NCBI GenBank assembly: GCA_963514005.1
Contig: OY740811.1
Location: forward strand, 27,094,001 to 27,158,000
Length of the DNA: 64,000 nt
Reading direction: 5' to 3'
From: Raja brachyura
Lineage: Eukaryota
Shown: piece after piece, positions 1 through 60,585 of the stretch
Numbering within the stretch: the stretch's first letter is position 1
Layout of the letters: each line of letters starts with the position of its first letter
Translations under genes and position numbers: made by a program
Notes under the pieces: model-generated
What the model was told of the DNA's origin: nothing
The model's database searches: none
Seen by the model: the letters and a program-made list of their open reading frames with translations, nothing else

Positions 1-39
1 TGCCACATGCCAAAGGAGACCAAGTCATTGCACCAACAC
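1..39 (-). CDS. KCNAB2: KCNAB2 exon, truncated by window edge: (G)VGAMTWSPLACG
   Basis: ttgaag|GTGTTGGTGCAATGACTTGGTCTCCT...; conserved WSPLA NADP-binding motif. Confidence 0.95.
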
Positions 40-413: not shown

Positions 414-534
414 CGATCTTATGGAAGAGCTCTGGAAGCTGCACTTCAACTTTCTCTCTTTGGAAGAGGTGATATTCAGCTTGTTCACATATTGGGGGGA
501 TGAGGTTGAATTGACGAGCCACTGAGTAAGCCTC
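414..534 (-). CDS. KCNAB2: KCNAB2 exon (121 nt): [40 protein letters not shown](G)
   Basis: ctgcag|GAGGCT...ATCG|gtaaat; lies inside track ORF 220..558. Confidence 0.97.
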
Positions 535-13356: not shown

Positions 13357-13401
13357 CTTCAATGATGAATGTTCTTGACTTTGAAGAACTAAATGGATCC
13401 C
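13357..13401 (-). CDS. KCNAB2: KCNAB2 frame-preserving cassette exon (45 nt): (G)DPFSSSKSRTFIIE
   Basis: U-rich tract + taccag|GGGATCCA...ATTGAAG|gtacac; phase 1-1; peptide matches the insert I recall from the long human KCNAB2 isoform. Confidence 0.88.
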
Positions 13402-19741: not shown

Positions 19742-19828
19742 CTTCCATGGGTGTGTTTGGGTCTGGCCTATTAGCAAATACCACATCCACATACTCCAAC
19801 TGTAACCGCTCAAGTGAAGCTTTCAGTC
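19742..19828 (-). CDS. KCNAB2: KCNAB2 exon (87 nt): (G)[28 protein letters not shown]
   Basis: tggcag|GACTGAAA...ATGGAAG|gtgagt; matches the recalled human Kv-beta2 segment; catalytic Asn (FANRPD). Confidence 0.97.
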
Positions 19829-20436: not shown

Positions 20437-20480
20437 CTTCTATAATGTGCTTTCGGGAGAGTCCTCTCTCCGTCTCCGCT
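20437..20480 (-). CDS. KCNAB2: KCNAB2 exon (44 nt): (K)AETERGLSRKHIIE(G)
   Basis: ttgcag|AGCGGAG...GAAG|gtaggg. Confidence 0.97.
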
Positions 20481-21466: not shown

Positions 21467-21511
21467 TTTCCACCCCAGAAGATTTTGGTTGTGATGACAA
21501 GGCTGGAACGT
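21467..21511 (-). CDS. KCNAB2: KCNAB2 exon (45 nt): (R)RSSLVITTKIFWGG(K)
   Basis: ttgcag|ACGTTCC...GGAAA|gtatgt; catalytic Lys; TTKIFW is Kv-beta2-type (beta1 TTKLYW). Confidence 0.97.
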
Positions 21512-22321: not shown

Positions 22322-22366
22322 CTCCATCCTTTCTTCTTGATAATGTTCCCCAATACAATTTCTGCC
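22322..22366 (-). CDS. KCNAB2: KCNAB2 exon (45 nt): (K)AEIVLGNIIKKKGW(R)
   Basis: ccacag|GGCAGAA...TGGAG|gtaatc; frame is continuous with neighbouring exons. Confidence 0.97.
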
Positions 22367-25334: not shown

Positions 25335-25770
25335 AGATGGCTTTGTGATAATATACAGTTCTGGTTGCCCTACCAGAGGAAGGGTATCAATAAATTGGAA
25401 AGGGTGTAATGGAGATTTACCAGGATGTCGCTGGGTCTGCAAAGTTTGAGTAATGAAGAGAGCTGGTCCTTTTTAAGCTCACTCCATCGGTGTAAGAGGT
25501 TAAGGAGTGACCTTACAGAGCATATCAGAGTCATGAAGTGCATAGATGAGGTGAATAGTCATAGTCTTTTCTCCAGGATAGTGGACGATAGCCCTACAAC
25601 TAGAGGACTTAGATTTAAAGTGAGGGGAGAAACATTTTTTAAAAGGACCAAGGGACAACTTTTTTATCATACAGAGGGTAATGCATTTATGGAAAGAGAG
25701 AAAGTGGCAGAGGCGGGTACAATTACAACATTTAAAAGACACTTGGATAGCTACGTGGATAGGAAAGCTT
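25335..25770 (+). mobile_element. CR1 LINE ORF2 3' fragment
   Basis: QFWLPY..KGINKLERV; TRG..FKV.G; TFKRHLD. Confidence 0.85.
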
Positions 25771-28413
25771 TATCACCTTTTCTGACTGGCGAGTGGATGA
25801 TCCATCTTAGCTTCCTCCCAAGTACCCTTTCATTATAGAAAGCAACCAAAGTAATTCATTCCATGCGATCATAAGAACTAGTTCTGATCAATGGATGCTG
25901 CAAAAGCCACAAAAATCTTCAATGGAGACACTGAAGGACTTTACGAAGCTGCATTGCTTATGACCTTTGGCTCAGAAGCAACAGTTTCAATAAGGTTGTA
26001 ATATTGTAGACTACCTACCAATGTGGAATATTGGCCAGTGAACAAAAATCAGATCATATCAAATCTTGGTATTTCATGATGTAAAAAATAAACAATGCTG
26101 TTTCTACCTTTGCTTTTAAGTGACACCAACAACCAAAAATCTGCTCAGTTTGGAGTTTCTTGCCAAGCCGTTCCGTTGTTAAAACCATGGATCAAAGAGC
26201 TGACGGCATTGACGGCAAGGCTTGATTGTTGAAGGGCAATTGTCTCATCATAGCAACTATTTTTTGATCAATTTTACCCAAGAAAATCCCCTATAACGTG
26301 TTCCCACCTAATAAAAATCAGTGGATTTATCCTGATTAAAATCTTAATTTGTAATGTCATACTTGGTGCAGTACCAATAATTATGGGATTTTCGTTTTCT
26401 GGCTGGCTGATTTGCAGCAAGATGCTACAATTATTTTCATTGCCAGCTTTAATAGATGTATTCAAGGTGCTCAACTGTGAAACAAACAGATCAACCAGAC
26501 CTAGTGCAGGCTAATGAGCAATCCTATTGGGTAATTAGCATTCTCAAATCCATGGGAATGGTATCTACAAGCTCAATTATTTACTATCCGCAATCTTAAT
26601 GTTGGTAGCTTAACTGCGCTTATATGCATTTGCCTGTGCATGTGTGAAAGCGTGCATAAGAGTGCATGTGAATTACTAATCCTTTAATTTTCAAAATGAA
26701 CTCCAGATTGTTAATTTATAATTGGTAGGTATGACTACTGAAACATTACATTAGTGTACACGAAAGATTTTTAAAGACAAAATAGTCCATGTAACTTTCT
26801 TCCTCTGGAATTTTAGCAAGTGCATGTTGTGCATGATGGGAACAACTATTTAATTATTTCTGTGACCATCATGGCTCTGATCATATTTTATATATATATA
26901 TATAAAATATTTTAAATTTATTTTGATTAGAAGCAATTGTACAAGGATAAGATGATTGGCATAACAATTATACAATTATTGTACAACTTCATTTTTAACC
27001 TTATAACCTAAATTTAAAAAAAATAGAAAAACGAAAAAGAAAGGAAAACAAGGAAAGAAAAACAAAAATAGAATGAAGAGATCAAATAGAAAAGAACAGG
27101 AAAAAGACCCCTAAGCTACCAAAGCAGTGCAGAAGAGAGAAAAGGAAATAGGAAAATAAAAGATGGAGATATATCTCCCCCCCCCCCCCCCCCCCCATCC
27201 ACCCATCATGGCATAGGATTTAAATTTAAATTTGTGTTTAACCATTCTGTTGTTGTAAAAATTCAGTAAATGGTATCCATGTCTTAAGAAATTGATCTTG
27301 TTTTTCCGCCAAGACAAGCCTGATGTTTTCCAAATGTAATGTCTCGGACATATCTGTAATCCACATCTTCACTGTGGGGACAGTTGTCTGTTTCCAAAAT
27401 TTAAGTATTAATTTTTTCACCATTATTAGGCCGTAATTGAGGAAACGTCTTTGAAATATCGTTAGCTAAGAGCAGGCCTCTGACATACCTAATATGATCA
27501 GTTTTATATCTGGGTCCTATATTTTTTTTATGACAATTGTGATCGATCATTTGGCACAGTGAGCAACTCCATCAATCCCATTCCCCATATATTTCCATGT
27601 AACTTATTCTCTCTCGCATGATTATTAATTCCACCAGATTCTCTTGCCACCCACTTGTAAATTGAGTAATTTATTGCTTACTACCCTGTCAAACAGCAAG
27701 TCCTTCGGGTGTCATCATGTTTTCACACAAGTCAAACCTACTGCAAGAGAAATGTATCATTTGAAAATACCATGATGGAATAAGATTCCAGCATCTGCAG
27801 ATTGTTGTGTCACTATTGTGATAGTCCATTTTTAAAATGCTTTGTGATCACCTCCAAAATTGCACAAGTAGAGAAATAATGTATTATGTATAGTTCCTCA
27901 ATCATTTTTCAATGCTTCAGTGATTTACAATCAAAATTACAACAGACATACGGTTTAGGTTCTACAAGGGTCCATTGATTGAAACATATTCTTTCTATGC
28001 CAATGTAATTCAGGTGATGGTCAGCACAAAGCATTTTAATTTGGCAAGACATAATTTAAAGGTAGATTTGAAGTATTTCTTCAATTCATTATAATATCTG
28101 CTAAAAAGATTGAGATATTCATAACATTAACAGTTAGAAATACTTCCAAAGATCGGCTGAATGGTCTATGAGTACTTCTATTTACCTGCAAATATACTTC
28201 AATTAAGAATAACCCAGAGAACAAAAGATAAAAATGGGAGCAATTTGAAAGATGACTGGTAACATTTTCATAATCCTCTGACAGTTTCTGAATATTTCTC
28301 TTTGTTTGTTTATCCTCAAATCTCAATCTCAACAGCAATCCAGATATGTAGTTGCAAAACAGCAAGCTATCAATTATGCAGAAGGTTACCTCATTTCTTG
28401 GCTAATGATTTAA

Positions 28414-29454: not shown

Positions 29455-29998
29455 TTCAATGTGATCATGGCTGATCATCCACAATCAGTACCCCGTTCCT
29501 GCCTTCTCCCTATACCCCTTGATTCCGCAAGCCCTTATTCTTCTTCTTTCGTGTGGCGTGCACAGCCTAAAGTTGTAGGACAACTTGTTCTATTTGATCT
29601 TCTGTTTGTACACGTCGAGTTAATTGCATTAGTCGAAACAGGGCGGACCACGTGGAGGTTGCAAGCTTCCACCCCCTGCAAGCCCTAAGAGCTCTATATA
29701 AGTCTTTTTTGAATGCATCCAGTGAATCAGCCTCGACAGCCTTCTGCGGCAGAGAATTCCACAAATTCACAACTCTCCGTGTGAAAAGGTTTTTCCTGAT
29801 CTCAGTTCTAAATGGCCTACCTCTTATTCTTAAATTATGGCCCCTGGTTCTGGACTCCCCCAACATCGGGAACATGTTTCCTGCATCTAGCATCTCCAAT
29901 CCCTTATTAATTTTATGTTTCTATAAGATTCCCTCTCATCCTTCTAAATTCCAGTGAATACAAGCCCAGTCGCTCCATTCTTTCATCATATGACAGTC
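29275..29998 (-). mobile_element. CR1 LINE 3' fragment (rearranged, carrying a nested short retroposon)
   Basis: MFP..GESRTRGHNLRIRGRPFRTEIRKNLFTRRVVNLWNSLPQKAVEA..L..FKK. Confidence 0.92.
29536..29677 (-). mobile_element. Short (GAA)n-tailed retroposon, copy 2, nested in CR1
   Basis: TSD gcaagccct (29527-29535 / 29678-29686). Confidence 0.85.
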
Positions 29999-30399: not shown

Positions 30400-30479
30400 T
30401 TGCCAGCTGCATAAACCTCTGCTGTGTCAAAGAGGTTTATTCCATTCTCATAGGCCAGTGTCATCAGCTGTTCAGCCAT
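30400..30479 (-). CDS. KCNAB2: KCNAB2 exon (80 nt): [26 protein letters not shown](K)
   Basis: tttcag|ATGGCT...GGCAA|gtaggt; contains the AKR catalytic Asp and Tyr (FDTAEVY). Confidence 0.97.
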
Positions 30480-31541: not shown

Positions 31542-31579
31542 CTCATCGGTGATCTGTCCTCCAAAGGTAACCCATGTTC
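31542..31579 (-). CDS. KCNAB2: KCNAB2 exon (38 nt): (G)TWVTFGGQITDE
   Basis: ctacag|GAACATGG...GATGAG|gtatgt; QITDE is Kv-beta2-type (beta1 has QISDE). Confidence 0.97.
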
Positions 31580-33592: not shown

Positions 33593-33636
33593 CTAGGCCA
33601 AGACAGGATACCCTTAGTCCTGATTTTCCAAGGTTT
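33593..33636 (-). CDS. KCNAB2: KCNAB2 exon (44 nt): (R)NLGKSGLRVSCLGL(G)
   Basis: gatag|AAACCTTGGA...GGCCTAG|gtaagc; invariant start of the Kv-beta core. Confidence 0.97.
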
Positions 33637-36865: not shown

Positions 36866-39800
36866 ATCATCAAACCATAAGACAGGAGCAGAATTAGGCC
36901 ATTCTGTCCATTGAGTCATTTGACCATGGCTGATCTACTTTTCCCCTCTCAACCCCATTTTCCTGCCTTCTCCCCGTAACCGCTGATGCACACCACCTCT
37001 TGGCGGTAATTTGGGATGGACAATAAATGCTGGTGATTAAGGATGGGCAATATATGTCCAGATTCTGAAAAAATTAAATAGATTAAAAACAACTCAACTT
37101 ACAGTAGATGCTGACTACTGCTCTAGAATTTTCCATTTGTGTTTACATTTTGAGAAGCTGCAGCATTTGCTTGCTTCTGAGAACAATAGCCTCACACTAT
37201 TGGAAAGATATATTTGCAACAATAAACAGATTTTAAAATATAAAACATTCAAAATGGAAATTGGGAAAATTAAGTGCCCGCATCATATTTATACAACAGA
37301 TTTATTTCTTCCTCTAAAAATATATTTTGACACTTCATGATTAATGAATATTTTAACAAGTAGATATCCAATTCATAAAAAAGCCACTGGGCTTAATTGA
37401 TAATGAATAATGGATTTCACTTTCCAAGGACCTGAGATATGTTTACCATGTTTATGTGCATTGGTAATATTGAGAAATTTGTAGAGATTCATGGAGATTA
37501 ATAACTTCCATTGGCAGCCAGTACACAATACCAAATGTTGAAAGGGAAGATGATTTCCCGGCAAATATTAGCAGATCTTAAAGGAGCAATATCCTTTTAG
37601 GTTTTCTGCTCGGTCATGCAAATTTCATTTGGACACTTGACATATCTATATTGGATATTTTAGAGTATTGGTTTCTAAGATTGCTATAAGAAAGATTTAT
37701 TGATGTAAATCCTTCTTGAAATAAGCATATTTCTCATTTCTGCGGGAAAATTTAATGTTTGAAAACGCAATTAAACATTATTTGAGATAAAGTAATTTTT
37801 TCACCATCTTTTCAAACTTTATCTGTAAACAACAGAACGAGCTCTAAAGTTGTGCCATGATAAAATAAACAATTTCAAGTCTGCAGAGCCTCCTTGGATA
37901 GAGAATTTCAACAATCTAAGAGCTCTTTCATAAAAAAATCTATCTTAGTCCTAAATAGCCAACTCATTTTTCCTGAGATGACAGCCCTAAATTCTAAATT
38001 CGATAGTCAGTTGAAGCAACTTCACAGTCTTTATCCTTTCAATCCAATTCAAAAACTTGCTTCAGTAAGAAAATACAGGGCAGTCGTACGCAAATGTTCC
38101 CAAAATGATAGACCTCTCAATCAAAAGATCAATCAAGTGCATCAATGATACACCACATCTAAGTATGTCCCTCATTGGATAAGACCAACAAGACCATGTA
38201 CTATTTCAACAATGCTTCTTTATTTTGAGACATCAACATTCTTGCAATGAATGCATTACACTATATACCTTCCAACTCTTATGTGCTTAACTAGTCCAAT
38301 ATACTACCATTTAGTGGTTTCTTACCATTGAACAAAATCTCTCTTCCTCCCAAAGTGTATATATTTTTTCCACTTTATATACTATTACCACCTTTTCATC
38401 TTATTACTTCAGTTGTTTGCATCACTTTTCATGCTCTTTGCTGTCTACTTTCCTAAGGAGTTTGTATCATCACTGTCTTTTCATCCGTCCATTAGCATGG
38501 ATTGTAAATAGCTCAGTAAATAGCCAATACAATTATTAAAAGAATGTGAAAATGAACATTTTCACTCATTTATTTTTAGTTTTCTGTCCTTTAACCTGAT
38601 CCCCTCAGTGTCAATATATTAACTCCAACCCCCAATTGTGCCTTATTATATGTAACAGATCCTTTAGGTGTCATTTGAAATGTTCATCAGCTCCATCCTA
38701 TTTATTATTGCTAGTTACATCCTCAAAACATTTATTCGATTTGTCAAACTCAATTTCTCTTTCATTAAACCATGTTGCCTCTCCCTTATCATATAATTTG
38801 CTAAGTGCTCATTAGCACATCCTTAATAATGGCTTTCAGCACTTTTCTGACAGCTGATATTAGGTTTACTGCTCTTCTGTTCCCTATATTCCCCCTCCCC
38901 AGTACTGTTATATATTTAACCTATTCTCAAATCTAGAGTATTGTGCGTCTGCAGCCACCTCCATGTACCCTCGAATTTCCACCATCAGTATGCTGTACTT
39001 ATTAACTTTTAGTTCACTTAATACCCCTCCCCCCATATGTACTCTTCATTATTCACTTGAGGTTATTCTCTACTACTACACCCCTGGGTCCCCATTATTG
39101 TTTATTGTGCCATCTACTGTGAAGACACATACAAAATATTTGTTTAATACTTCAGCCAATTCTGTTGTGTTAATTGATTCTACACCACAGACCAAGATTT
39201 AATTTATTAGTTTCTTCCGTTTTATTTGGTTGCCGAAATTATCCTTTTTGTAAACTTTTGTTGCTTGTTCATTTTTATATTCCACTTTCTATCAACTTCT
39301 TCAACTGCTCATTCCTAAAACTTCACCAATCTCAGGATTGCTACTCTGTTTGGGAATAATATGCCTCATTAGCCTCAGATGTTTCATTCTATGGAATGCA
39401 GATGCATTCATATCCCTTAAATTATTTTTCAATCAATCTCAATTCTTCCTTCAAACTTGCATAATTAGCATTATTCAAATGAATTTCAGCTGAATTAAGT
39501 CCCTCCTGAATTAAACAGACCCAAAGAGAGTTCAGATGCAACAAGATTAAAACACAGTTAAAAATTAGATGAAGGATTGTAAATGTAATTTGTTCATTTT
39601 AAATATCAAATTGTCATTTTTATATTTCCTTTATAAATTCCAATACACCTATTTATAATGAAAACCTTTGCCATTCTGTCATTTCATTTCCTCTGTGTAG
39701 ATATTTCAATCTTTTCAATGCTACGATGATATAATTACAAATCTGTCAAGGTTACATTGATGAGTTTATAACTCAGATTTAAACACTGGATTTCAATCTT

Positions 39801-40184
39801 TGAAAAAATGTTGAGAGAAAGAATACGATATTATATATTTAATTTATTAAAACAGACATTTTAAACATCCTACTTTGTAAACAATGGGAAATAACTTTGA
39901 TAAAGCACCTTTTAATTAAATATTGAGCGTTTCTATCTTCGAAAAAATGCCACTGAGCAGTTTAAAATTTGCTAAATTCCCTGACCAAACAACAATTAAA
40001 CTCTGGATAACCCTTACTGGTGTTATTAAAGTAATTAGATTGTGACTCCTTAAATGGACAATTGCATACCCGCAGGATACAACCAATCAATAAGCATTTA
40101 ATTCCTGTCTTTCTAAAACGATACATCAACTTAATAACCATAAAGATCTACCAATATTTTTATATTTCAGGTGATTTTGGCATT

Positions 40185-42911: not shown

Positions 42912-43123
42912 CTAAACTTCATCCCTGGGTAATTTGATCTTAAATCACATGAAGATGTCATGTTTTGCACCGACAGCTGTCCTAAACTTCGGGCAACCAT
43001 GGCCACTGTTCTGAACTTGCTCTTACTTCCTAGGTTGGGGCTACTTGCATTGTGCCGATTGAGTCTCTCATCTGTGCCTCTGTTCTTCAGATTATGATCG
43101 GTGCACATAAACGACACCTGCAT
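42912..43123 (-). CDS. KCNAB2: KCNAB2 first coding exon (212 nt): MQVSFMCTDHNLKNRGTDERLNRHNASSPNLGSKSKFRTVAMVARSLGQLSVQNMTSSCDLRSNYPGMKF(R)
   Basis: ATG at 43123. Donor AG|gtatgg at 42912/42911 is phase 2 and joins the 33636 exon to give ...GMKFR-NLGKSG. Strongly resembles the Kv-beta1.1 N-terminus MQVSIACTEHNLK...KFRTVAIIARSLG...TGMKYR (recalled). Confidence 0.9.
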
Positions 43124-43666
43124 AATTGCTCTGAAAATCTCTATTGCAGAATTATGTCTTACAGAAAGGATGATCATAGAGTGTCCTCTTGGTGTTGAAT
43201 GTGTGGTAGCAGATGAAGCTCTCAGGATAAGATGGGTAGACTTGCAGCGATTGAATACAGTCTTCAAAATCCAACACTAAGCTTTTAACCAAGAAAAATA
43301 GAAAGATCAAACATCGATCGTAAAAAAAAGCAGCATATTTCCTTTTCCTTGGAATTGGCGCATTTGCTCCTTCTTCATGGTCATGTATCCTACCTATGCT
43401 TAGTCCTTATAGGTGAATAAAGCTGCTGAATCTCCAAAGGGTTTATTTATTTTTTTCAACGCCAGCAGTATCTCAAGTGTCAGCAATGTTCTTTCGCTCT
43501 CCCCTTATCGTGCTGCAAATTGAAGACAGAATTCTTTCAAATCGGAAGACAGTTTTCAGCACTCGAGCATACTTCCGATAATCGTTTCCTGTTAATCTTC
43601 TTTTTCAAAGTCGTTCCGGAGTGTCATAGTCCATAAACTACCAAAGCTAAGTAAGGAAATACTTAC

Positions 43667-46789: not shown

Positions 46790-47520
46790 TATTCCAAAAC
46801 ATTCAGTTAACTATAAATGACCACACAGCACTGATGTACAGAGGAATGTTGGTGACCAAATAGGCTGAAAGTGGCAACACAAATAGATAGTGGTAAAGAA
46901 GGCATATGGTATGCTTGCTTTCATAGATCGGGGCATTGAGAATAAAAGTCAGGAAATCATGATGCAGCTGAATAGGACTTTGGTTAGGCCGTATTTAGGA
47001 GCATTTTGTGCAGTTCTGGCCGCCCCATTGCAGAAAGGATGTGGAAACTTTGGAAAGGGTGCAGATGAGGTTTACCAGAATGATGCCTGGATTATTCGCT
47101 ACAAGGAGAGGTTGGACAGACTTGGATTGTTATCTGTGGAATGCCAGAAGTTGCAGGGAGGCCTGATGGATGTACATAAAATCATAAGAGGTATAGATAG
47201 GGTAGACAGTCATAAATATATTCTCAGGTTGGATGAATCAAATACTAGAGGGCATAGCTTTAAGACGAGATGGGCAACGTTTAAAGGAGATGTGTGTGGC
47301 AATTTCTTTTTCCAGGTAAGTGCCTGGAATGTGCTGGGCGGGCTGATGGTTGACACAGATATGATAGTGGCATTTAAGAGACTTCTGGATAGGCATATGG
47401 ATAGGCTGGGATTGGAAGGATGTGGATCATGTGCAGGTAGATAAGAGATGGTCTTAGCATCATGTTTAGCACAGACATTGTGGGCCATGGGGGCTGTTCT
47501 TGCACCGTACTGATCTATGT
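46790..47520 (+). mobile_element. CR1 LINE ORF2 3' fragment (frameshifted)
   Basis: VKKAYGMLAFI.RGIE.KS.E.M.QL..TLVRP.L...YKERLDRLGL.S...TRGHSFK. Confidence 0.92.
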
Positions 47521-48186: not shown

Positions 48187-48985
48187 ACTTGTCTAAGTGG
48201 GACCCGTTGGGTGCCAGCATCACACGGGAGGGCTGGTCCCCCAATCCAATATTCCACCTCTCCACCAATTCCAATATTGGTGGCCAGTGGGGGGGGGGGG
48301 GGGGGGGGGGGCTTTCTGGATCGCTAGTATGGGTGTTGTGCGCTGAAGGGACTGGTTTCCAGAGGGCTAGTATGGACATTGTGTGCCGAATGGATTCTTG
48401 GGCTGGCGGCTCAGTCACTCATGCCTGTTGTGCTGGCAGCTCACTCACTTATGGCTGGTGGGTTCACAGTTGACTCACGGCTATTCCTTGAAATAGTGCA
48501 AGGGCATCAAATTCAAGTGCAGTTCATACCATTTCAAGCAGGGTGCAAGGCCACTAAAGACAGCGAGTCATGTAGAGATTGAGCCACGCCCACACTTCCG
48601 GGTTTTATAGTCCCCCCCCCTCCCATCAGAAGGGGCGTGGCCTTCATGGCATGATTGACAGGAGAGAGAATCTCAACATTTTTTAAACACTAATAATTCT
48701 TTTATTTTTCATCGATGGGAAAAATCCTCGGCACCTGATGAGCGGAGGGGCTCTGAGTAAGATGGCCACAAATCACAGTCGTACGTGGTAGCATTTTTAC
48801 TAAAATCAATATAAAGCGTAAACAGGAAGTGGTCAAGATTAGACTTTTAATTATATAGAAGGCAGCTCTAATTAGGCAAGGCAGCTCTAATGAGGCAGGG
48901 CAGCTTGCTTTAGCACTTTCAAAACCTAAGGCAACACAGCTTGCTTTAGCACTTTCAAAACCAATGGCAACACAGCTTGCTTTAG

Positions 48986-50016
48986 TAGGTATGTTACAAA
49001 ACTTACCTTTACCGGCGCTGCACTTCTGCCGCTCCCCGTGTGCGCGACTTTCGCGCCTTGCAGACGGGGGCGGGCTTAAAGTGCCGTTTTTCCACAGGCC
49101 TGGATAATCGATGAATGTCGGGCGATTTGGTTGCTGAAGAAAAATCGCTCCGACATTTAATGAATGGTGGTATTTTTAAATTACTCTAGATTATTTATTA
49201 ACTAGAGTAATTTAAAAATCACCTTCAAAAGCCGTGACCGCAGACAACCGGAAGCATTTTGCGTAGGGAAGAAAAAAAGGTAAATACTTTATTTTTATAT
49301 TAAAAGTTGGTTTTTCGGGAGGCATTAATAATATTTTTATGTTGCGAAATGGGGTCCCCAAAAAATGTATGAACCCCCAGTATTTTTCCCCCCGACTTCA
49401 CTGCTAACCGCAACGTTCCAATCCACCGCATTCCACTAAAACCCACTCGCTAGTTGATTTAAATGGCCATTAATTTACAGCATAAAACACTAAATTCCTT
49501 CCATTTGGCCCAGAAATTCATGAAAATGAGATTTAAAAATTATGTTATATTGTGGATTATTGTGTGAATGTTATTTGGACACTTAGGCAATTTTAAAAAA
49601 GTTTATCTTTTCTTAAGAAATTGATAGATGTTTAGATCTAATTGAATTTTGTAATTAGCTACAATTAGATAACTAACTAATTATATGCTTTAATTTCAGG
49701 TCATCCAAGTAAGATTGTTTAATATTTGTTTCAGAATGCTTCAATCTATAATAACTGAAAATTTCATTGAGTTCTCTTAATTTTTAAGAATGTTATGGAC
49801 ATTTAACTTTTCCAGATCACAGCTTTTGAGTTAAGTCAATTGAAAGGCAATGGGAAGCAAGATGCTCATTTCCGAGTATGAAAATGGCCATAACTTTCTT
49901 AATACTGAAGATATGAAAGTAAATTAGGTGTCAAATTAAATTTCTTTTTATGCTTTATCTGATGGGATAAATTGCAGACTTGATTTTTAAAATCTCAAAA
50001 TTTTGTAACATTGCTA
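48986..50016. mobile_element. Non-autonomous TIR DNA transposon, copy 2
   Basis: TAGGTATGTTACAAAA / TTTTGTAACATTGCTA; TSD gctttag on both sides. Confidence 0.85.
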
Positions 50017-50215
50017 GCTTTAGCACTTTCAAAACCAAAGGCAACACAGCTTGCTTTAGCACTTTCAAAACCAAATGCAATACAGCTTGCTTCAGCACTT
50101 TCAAAACCAAAGGCAACACAGCTTGCTTTAACACTTTCAAAACCAAAGACAACACAGCTTACTTTAGCACTTTCAAAACCAAAGGCAACACAGCTTTAGC
50201 ACTTTCAAACCAAAA
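50017..50215. repeat. 36-bp minisatellite (gcaacacagcttgctttagcactttcaaaaccaaag), ~5.5 units; ~2.3 further units at 48901-48985
   Basis: Direct tandem units without spacers; the array is split by the TIR element. Confidence 0.92.
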
Positions 50216-50636
50216 CACACTTTTGCATTTTCAAACTACATTTTCAAACCACATTAAGGGCACTGACAGGTCAGTAAAACCACTCACAGTTTAGCAGACA
50301 TATGTTCAGTGTTATTCACAGCTCAGACTGAGAATTGCGACCTCTCGCTCCCCCATCTTGCAGAGAACTGAGACACCTCCACACTTCCGGGTTTTATAGT
50401 CCATCCGGAAGGGGCGTGGCCTTCAGGAGAGAGAATCTCAACATTTTTAAACACTAGTAACTCTTTTATTTTTCATCGATGGTAAAAATCCTCTAGTCCT
50501 CTAGGGACTCTGAGTAAGATGGCCAAAAATCACAGCCGAAGTGGCAGTGTTTTTTCTAAAATCAATATATAGAACAACAGGAAGTGATGAAGATCAGATT
50601 TTTAGTAATATAGACTTTCCTCTTCACCTTAAACCT

Positions 50637-59655: not shown

Positions 59656-59820
59656 NNNNNNNNNNNNNNNNNNNNNNNNNNNNNNNNNNNNNNNNNNNNN
59701 NNNNNNNNNNNNNNNNNNNNNNNNNNNNNNNNNNNNNNNNNNNNNNNNNNNNNNNNNNNNNNNNNNNNNNNNNNNNNNNNNNNNNNNNNNNNNNNNNNNN
59801 NNNNNNNNNNNNNNNNNNNN
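59656..59820. other. Assembly gap (165 N)
   Basis: Run of N. Confidence 1.
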
Positions 59821-60039
59821 TCATTTATAATATTGTTTTACAGAGACTATGTTTACATATTTTGTTGTGCTGCTGCAAGTAAGAGTTTCATTGATCTGTC
59901 TGGGACATATGACAAAACAACATGCTTGAATTAATCATTAAAGGTGGTGGACGGTATGTGAAAAACTGAGCGTTTTGTGAATTGTTGGAACTACATGCCA
60001 GCAGGAATAGGTTTGTTTAAATGAAATGTACAGATGAAG

Positions 60040-60585
60040 TGGAGCTGGACCTCCCGGTGGCTCAGCACTTCAACTCCCCCTCCCACTGCGTATCCGACCT
60101 CTCGGTCCTGGGCCTCCTCCACGGCCAGAGTGATCAACACCGCAAGTTGGAAGAACAGCACCTCATATTCCGCTTGGGGAGTCTGCATCCTCTGGGCTTA
60201 AACATTGAATTTTCTCAATTCTGTTAACCCAGACTGCCTCCCCCCCACCTCTCCCTCAGCCCTCTGGCCCTGACATTCCTTCTCCATCTCCCCCCCCCCC
60301 CCCCCCCCCCAGTCGCACTAGCTTCTCATTTTCACACCACAAACAGCTTACAATGGCCTGCTTCCTTTATCACCAATACTTTTTTGCATATCTTTCACTC
60401 ATTGTTCCTTATCTCTCCACATCACTGTTTATATCTCTCGTTTCCCTGATCCCTGACCAGTCTGAAGAAGGGTCTCGACCCGAAACGTCGCCTATCTCCT
60501 TCGCTCCTTAGATGCTGCTGCACCCACTGAGTTTCTCCAGCTTTTTGTGTAACCCTCGATTCTCCAGCATCTGCAGTTCCTTCTT
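60040..60585 (+). mobile_element. Penelope-like element: GIY-YIG C-terminus plus pLTR
   Basis: LPVAQHFNSPSH..SDLSVLGLLH.QS...RKLEEQHLIFRLGSL.P.GLNIEF* followed by a pyrimidine-rich UTR and hammerhead motif. Confidence 0.88.
60458..60493 (+). ncRNA. Minimal hammerhead ribozyme-like motif of a Penelope pLTR
   Basis: CTGAAGA-a-GGGT-ctcg-ACCC-GAAAC-GTC: core boxes, 4-bp stem II, minimal stem III; stem I is weak. Confidence 0.55.

Follow-up and report, generated by a model that had tools for sequence, protein, structure and literature searches.

A Kv-beta1.1-type alternative first exon in ray KCNAB2 and the ball-bearing Kv-beta2 isoform that it predicts

The window analysed here, the whole stretch of 64,000 nucleotides of Raja brachyura DNA, carries an alternative first coding exon of KCNAB2 that probably gives a Kv-beta2 isoform of about 398 aa with fast N-type inactivation. 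It is an old first exon of the beta1.1 type, and its conservation extends from rays to rodents. We infer that the isoform resembles Kv-beta1.1 in its working, yet is not a product of KCNAB1. According to the usual division of Kv-beta subunits, inactivation of Kv1 channels is a property of beta1 and beta3 that beta2 lacks (PMC9317154, PMC7239824, bioRxiv 10.1101/274449). A 2022 review describes the beta2 variants as having no inactivation peptide (PMC9317154).

The exon (212 nt, minus strand) has a stop-free translation, and the resulting 70-residue peptide has Cys at position 7. The exon has a phase-2 GT donor (AG/gtatgg) at its end and joins in frame to an AG acceptor at 33636; this junction (42912->33636) is predicted from the sequence. 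The donor matches the U1 consensus at 6/9 positions, and the other donors of the KCNAB2 model at 6-9. The 11-exon model without the cassette encodes 280 aa with 0 stops. With the 45-nt cassette, the 12-exon model encodes 295 aa with 0 stops, and GT-AG ends were found at 11/11 introns. The gene model exceeds the window at base 1. An earlier note on this DNA had described the exon peptide with its Cys7 and the in-phase join to the core. Our translation and stop-free model agree with it, and the five motifs that it named are all present in the window. The features are as follows; the core exons come from the spliced model.

42912..43123, minus strand: alternative first coding exon of KCNAB2, 70 codons plus 2 nt, placed as a homologue of the Kv-beta1.1 N-terminus
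43094..43123, minus strand: predicted 'ball' tip, codons 1-10, with V3, C7 (43103-43105) and H10 and the CxxH motif, placed by conservation
42974..43024, minus strand: basic/hydrophobic chain motif K34-L50, equivalent of beta1.1 R37-F53, placed by residue mapping
33593..33636, minus strand: first common core exon, 44 nt
31542..31579, minus strand: core exon, 38 nt, QITDE
30400..30479, minus strand: core exon, 80 nt, with D116 and Y121
22322..22366, minus strand: core exon, 45 nt
21467..21511, minus strand: core exon, 45 nt, TTKIFW, with K149
20437..20480, minus strand: core exon, 44 nt
19742..19828, minus strand: core exon, 87 nt, LKASLERL, with N189
13357..13401, minus strand: frame-preserving cassette exon, 45 nt, 15-residue insert, the same as in the duck beta2-core protein P0014
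2196..2281, minus strand: core exon, 86 nt, ETVRAM
414..534, minus strand: core exon, 121 nt, ELFHKI, with E262, the equivalent of beta1.1 E265
1..39, minus strand: core exon truncated at the window edge

The insert encoded by the cassette exon (13357-13401) is identical in ray and duck, and of the named beta2 proteins that cover this junction only 3/61 have it. The inserts that 5/81 beta1 proteins carry there are unrelated in appearance.

Other first exons were also searched for. The scan for phase-2 donors gave 7 candidates, and only the one at 42912 was Kv-beta-like. The canonical KCNAB2 first exons were not found in 33640-64000, which covers 20.9 kb upstream of the exon and the intron below it, and they probably lie beyond the window. 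Neither motif scans of the window nor tblastn of 18 named proteins against it revealed another first exon (best new match, E 0.12). A skate 5' primer had 0 matches in the window at 3 mismatches, a weak result since the primer comes from another species. No CpG island was detected at the exon (o/e <=0.64, GC <=0.40), and the Rfam search gave 0 matches. The reading of the exon as an internal one, with the AG 7 nt 5' of the ATG as an in-frame acceptor, was not adopted: 10/20 pyrimidines precede this AG versus 12-18 at the 11 modelled acceptors.

The relation of the exon to Kv-beta1.1 was detected with an HMM whose only input was 15 named beta1.1 N-termini. Run on the 2150 stop-to-stop segments that the window contains, it found the exon frame with E 8e-20 and the runner-up segment with E 0.18, so the likeness is not due to chance. 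The peptide is identical to that of stingray beta-2 X4 at 64/70 positions, to Mus pahari P0079 at 41/70, and to three elasmobranch beta-1a proteins at 36-37/70. Pfam and NCBIfam hold no model for the exon, and searching PDB sequences with just the exon returned only chance matches (best E 0.14). The exon and the Kv-beta1.1 N-terminus are truly homologous. Like this splice variant of KCNAB1, the predicted isoform has an N-terminus of about 70 residues, V3, C7xxH10, the FRTVA..ARSLG motif, the same core junction and the equivalents of E265/E349. Unlike it, the isoform belongs to another gene and has F5 and M/V6 for I5 and A6 of the mammalian beta1.1 ball, and L50 for F53 (F5 also occurs in three teleost beta1), and residues 49-66 of the window peptide are largely different. 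As the earlier note states, the N-terminus of Kv-beta3.1 begins like that of beta1.1. The KCNAB3 product is described as having an inactivating, hemin-sensitive N-terminus with cysteines (PMC7239824); its calmodulin site is predicted to be absent (PMC4614385), whereas the window exon keeps most of the beta1.1 site.

The core joined to this exon was assigned by identity, diagnostic residues and a tree. Over 209 residues the window core is identical to that of Hemitrygon akajei beta-2 isoform X4 (P0002, RefSeq) at 209/209 positions, to gar KCAB2 at 206/209, and to manta and skate beta-1a at 190-191/209. Compared by eye, via the identical stingray protein, with the crystallised Kv-beta2 chain 3lut_A, it showed 5/209 differences, that is 204/209 identities. 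The stingray protein P0002 was recognised by TIGR01293 (626 bits, cut-off 365) and by PF00248. The core also has D116, Y121, K149 and N189, which we take to be the catalytic Asp, Tyr, Lys and Asn positions.

The cores of ray beta2 and ray beta1 differ at 44 positions. Thirteen of these differences are kept by 80% or more of 13 beta2-labelled and 16 beta1 proteins and were used as a beta2-diagnostic set. The window covers 11 of these sites, with the beta2 state at 11/11 and the beta1 state at 0/11. The set was defined with stingray P0002 and is partly circular, and the independent anchor is 3lut_A, which has the beta2 state at 13/13 sites (by eye). Quick, unrooted IQ-TREE trees were built from 37 cores: the window, 20 of 78 exon-carrying named matches and 16 of 118 named matches. 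The named matches of the protein searches included no beta3. Beta1 and beta2 were split in the trees with SH-aLRT 100, and the grouping of the ray beta2 core with elasmobranch beta1 was rejected (p-AU 0.004). Placing the rays with all beta1 against 8 bony-vertebrate beta2 was not rejected (AU test, p 0.92), a comparison which is ill-posed in an unrooted tree: that split is the expected species branching, and without a root the tree alone does not fix the placement of rays. No neighbouring genes were identified within the 64-kb window. The core is KCNAB2 and not KCNAB1. The beta2 assignment of the earlier note is borne out by these identities and sites, and the core phylogeny that it proposed as a check came out in favour of beta2 in the beta1 versus beta2 part.

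The same exon was found in many public proteins. A search with the exon returned 84 longer proteins, 78 of them named. Unnamed matches (6/84 here, and 2/120 in the protein search for the core tree) were excluded from the counts. A cluster-representative search gave 57 unnamed matches, which were used only where another search named them; from this search and one further protein search, only rows with a non-human name were taken. The 78 named proteins come from stingray, gar, bichir, teleosts, caecilian, turtles, tuatara, skink, birds and mammals. The mammals comprise 8 rows from 7 species (wombat, horse, bison, gray whale, Damaraland mole-rat, Mus pahari and Chinese hamster). The named rows included 0 primates, an absence that is uninformative in a database clustered at 90% identity.

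Beta2-state cores were present in 78/78 named matches. The MQVS start with C7 and H10 was found in 77/78, and 73/78, including the stingray model, begin there. RefSeq 'isoform X' models, which are usually based on RNA-seq introns, make up 17 of the 78. At least 29/78 are labelled beta-1/KCAB1 despite their beta2 cores (e.g. P0007, P0032, P0041, P0059, P0064, P0071), probably from the best full-length match being Kv-beta1.1, and this is a trap for annotation. The isoform sequence is not new: automated annotation already contains it, just as the earlier note had cautioned. Hemitrygon akajei beta-2 X4 (P0002) and Mus pahari beta-2 X1/X2 (P0079, P0078) have the same first exon on the same core. 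Such RefSeq/UniRef predictions of KCNAB2 isoforms are automated models, and the window species differs from them by C59. This Cys59 (42947-42949, minus strand) is in 0/77 named copies and could pair with Cys7. Residues 59-65 of the exon peptide are diverged in rays.

In the 77 named copies, M1-F5, C7, H10, R15, R20, R23, F37 and V43-L50 (including R45) are invariant. The mean frequency of the top residue was 0.91 for residues 1-10, 0.78 for 11-35, 0.96 for 36-53 and 0.64 for 54-66; the figure for 36-53 is inflated, as its conservation is partly an ascertainment effect of the shared-word search. The net charge of the linker (residues 8-34) is +2 in 19/21 beta2-core sequences (range +1 to +3; window +2), and +1 or +2 in 15/15 beta1.1 linkers. 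The hydropathy of the tip is 1.27-1.61 in beta2-core sequences and 1.27-1.51 in beta1.1, with 1.29 for window residues 1-7. With its hydrophobic, V3-bearing tip and net-positive linker, the window peptide is within or equal to the beta1.1 ranges.

The residues that papers have tied to inactivation and regulation of beta1.1 can be compared one by one. The beta1.1 ball is described as extending to residue 34 (PMC4614385), and its V3 as coupling to a valine lining the pore (PMC12460158). The C7xxH10 motif is reported as a heme site of beta1.1 (PMC7239824), and this redox/heme motif is present in the window. For beta1.1, R37 and R48 are reported to dock on E265 and E349 of the core once the bound NADPH is oxidised, the calmodulin site spans F40-I59, with R37, R41, R48, F40 and F53, and the F40S+F53S change abolishes Ca2+ regulation (PMC4614385). 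The window is identical to beta1.1 at V3, C7, H10, F40, R41, R48 and E265, and R37 is replaced by K. The docking equivalents in the window are K34, R45 and E262; the equivalent of E349 (E346) was seen in the stingray model only and lies outside the window. At the calmodulin site the equivalents K34, F37, R38 and R45 are present, and F53 is replaced by L50, which is L in 77/77 copies. On this residue mapping, the exon retains the residues tied by those papers to inactivation and regulation. A conserved hydrophobic N-terminal tip, a positive linker and the regulatory motifs together are what is expected of a working ball-and-chain. AlphaFold2 on the stingray isoform (26-row alignment) gave a mean pLDDT of 45.7, with residues 1-95 below 50, which is too poor to use, and the helix that it shows at 33-45 carries no weight here.

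A mechanism can be proposed on this basis. A separate promoter would make the ball isoform in some tissues, and its beta2 core would dock on the Kv1 T1 domain as usual. Once the channel is open, residues 1-7, the hydrophobic tip, would enter the inner pore with the help of the net-positive linker and cause fast N-type inactivation. The plug would be disabled when Cys7 is oxidised or heme binds at C7xxH10. Through the chain motif K34-L50, the core in the NADP+ state, and probably Ca2+/calmodulin as well, would be able to restrain it. The choice of first exon would switch KCNAB2 between non-inactivating and inactivating subunits. Given fast inactivation, redox and heme sensitivity are highly probable; we are less sure of calmodulin control. 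The engineered 'beta12', with the beta1 N-terminus on the beta2 core, reportedly inactivates, the beta2 core being reported to tolerate the beta1 ball. 'Beta12' has the architecture predicted here, a beta1.1-type ball on a beta2 core; it is artificial with beta1 sequence, whereas the window isoform would be natural with its own diverged ball. The inactivation particle of beta12 is named, and left undefined, in a passage of PMC12460158.

We consider it unlikely that the isoform is expressed but that its N-terminus, retained for trafficking, targeting or the binding of calmodulin or heme, causes little or no fast inactivation. That reading would fit the chain motif 36-53, which is conserved at least as much as the tip, and the variation of beta3 inactivation with the cell system (dependence on the expression system is stated in bioRxiv 10.1101/274449, citing Leicher et al.). 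It would also fit the descriptions of beta2 inactivation as absent (PMC9317154, PMC7239824, bioRxiv 10.1101/274449), but these statements refer to the short beta2.1 form. Kv-beta2.1 (367 aa; 3lut_A, 7ej1_A) and its 353-aa variant share the core (204/209 within the window part); their canonical short N-terminus is described as having no inactivation peptide (PMC9317154, PMC7239824), in contrast to the 70-residue beta1.1-like exon. Further arguments against it are the extreme N-terminal position of the tip, the invariance of M1-F5, C7 and H10 there, and a hydrophobicity equal to that of beta1.1. Fast N-type inactivation by the predicted isoform is preferred here.

Some observations weigh against the proposed isoform: the changes I5F and A6M/V in the ball relative to mammalian beta1.1, L in place of F53, and a report on skate. 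In skate electroreceptor RNA-seq, 4/4 Kcnab2 assemblies are given as ball-less 353/367-aa forms (bioRxiv 10.1101/274449); thus batoids make canonical beta2, and the ball isoform is absent from these electroreceptor assemblies. A zebrafish study recorded Kv1.1a with Kv-beta2b, the isoform being unstated, and the word 'inactivation' is absent from its main text (PMC5659376). In the open-access literature we found no description or functional test of a ball-bearing Kv-beta2, and the names 'Kvbeta2.2' and 'Kvbeta2.3' were not found in open-access Kv-beta literature listings; much of the classic Kv-beta work is in subscription journals and may include an earlier description.

The age of the exon was examined with an unrooted tree of 36 sequences, 21 on beta2 cores and 15 on beta1 cores. 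Exons on beta1 cores and on beta2 cores separated at SH-aLRT 100. Because each side of the tree holds both cartilaginous and bony vertebrates, the exon was in KCNAB1 and KCNAB2 before chondrichthyans and osteichthyans diverged. Its transfer from beta1 in rays alone was rejected (p-AU 0.004). In KCNAB1 and KCNAB2 the exon joins the core at an identical residue. Catfish beta2 P0056 and gar beta1 P0231 have a further upstream N-terminal segment in common (25/89 identical, pairwise E 3e-7), in the same order; both are rough fused gene predictions. This suggests that the array of alternative first exons would itself be ancestral, and KCNAB2 may have a second ball-like isoform. In the fish models P0056 and P0050, compared with P0231, the extra upstream segment ends in a GMKY-like motif; it is outside this window.

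Most likely, the gene ancestral to KCNAB1 and KCNAB2 already had the exon and passed it on to both. It is quite improbable that it was instead copied between the two genes by conversion or shuffling soon after the duplication. An unrooted exon tree holding no beta3, jawless-fish or amphioxus sequences leaves room for such copying, which concerns the origin only; the shared junction residue, the second upstream segment common to both genes in the same order and the rejection of lineage-specific transfer all speak against it. The earlier claim that the exon predates the duplications of KCNAB1/2/3 stands in part: presence in KCNAB1 and KCNAB2 before the split of sharks and bony fishes is supported by the trees, which cover beta1 and beta2.

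The translation start is the next point. An in-frame ATG lies upstream at 43175..43177 (minus strand), 18 codons before the MQVS ATG. From 43177 the reading continues without a stop through the exon; on the upstream side, an in-frame stop first occurs at 43279. If translation in this species started there, 18 extra residues would mask or alter the ball. We hold this to be very unlikely, since the upstream ATG is in a weak context with T at -3, versus A at -3 for the MQVS ATG, and 73/78 named homologues, the stingray model among them, start at MQVS. MQVS is the more probable start. A further in-frame ATG (43106-43108, minus strand) is codon 6, also in weak context; this codon is Met in the window and stingray and Val in most others.

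It can hardly be credited that we are dealing with a relic exon that is not expressed, or that the locus is really KCNAB1 or KCNAB3: the beta-1/KCAB1 labels of at least 29/78 named homologues and a gene model drawn from sequence are set against an intact frame conserved from ray to mammals, beta2 states in every one of the 78 cores and the 204/209 match to crystallised Kv-beta2.

KCNAB2 is described as the most abundant Kv-beta of the brain and as non-inactivating. We suggest tentatively, as a possibility short of even chances, that KCNAB2 of jawed vertebrates, rodents included, also makes a redox-, heme- and Ca2+/calmodulin-sensing ball subunit that has never been recorded from. This subunit would contribute a physiologically relevant part of the Kv1 A-type current now ascribed to KCNAB1, and the ball-less Kv-beta2.1 would be the derived state, the ball exon having been present in the ancestral gene. 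If the isoform works, gene-level Kcnab2 expression, knockouts and core-directed antibodies could not be read as reporting a 'non-inactivating subunit', and it would be a candidate source for the residual A-type current in Kcnab1-null cells. Should the exon persist in humans, its variants could then be of clinical importance. That public predictions already contain the sequence makes the finding less surprising.

Some other features of the window were noted. Four short ORFs, at 46911-47444 (+), 25425-25838 (+), 29567-29893 (-) and 60021-60227 (+), had no Pfam match at E 0.01 and resemble decayed retroelement fragments. An assembly gap of 165 N is at 59656-59820. The GC skew is strong (-0.30) at 38001-40000, within the first intron, where no tandem repeat was reported. 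Upstream of the exon, a 36-bp tandem unit forms two arrays about 1 kb apart, at 48901-48985 (2.4 copies) and 50013-50255 (5.8 copies).
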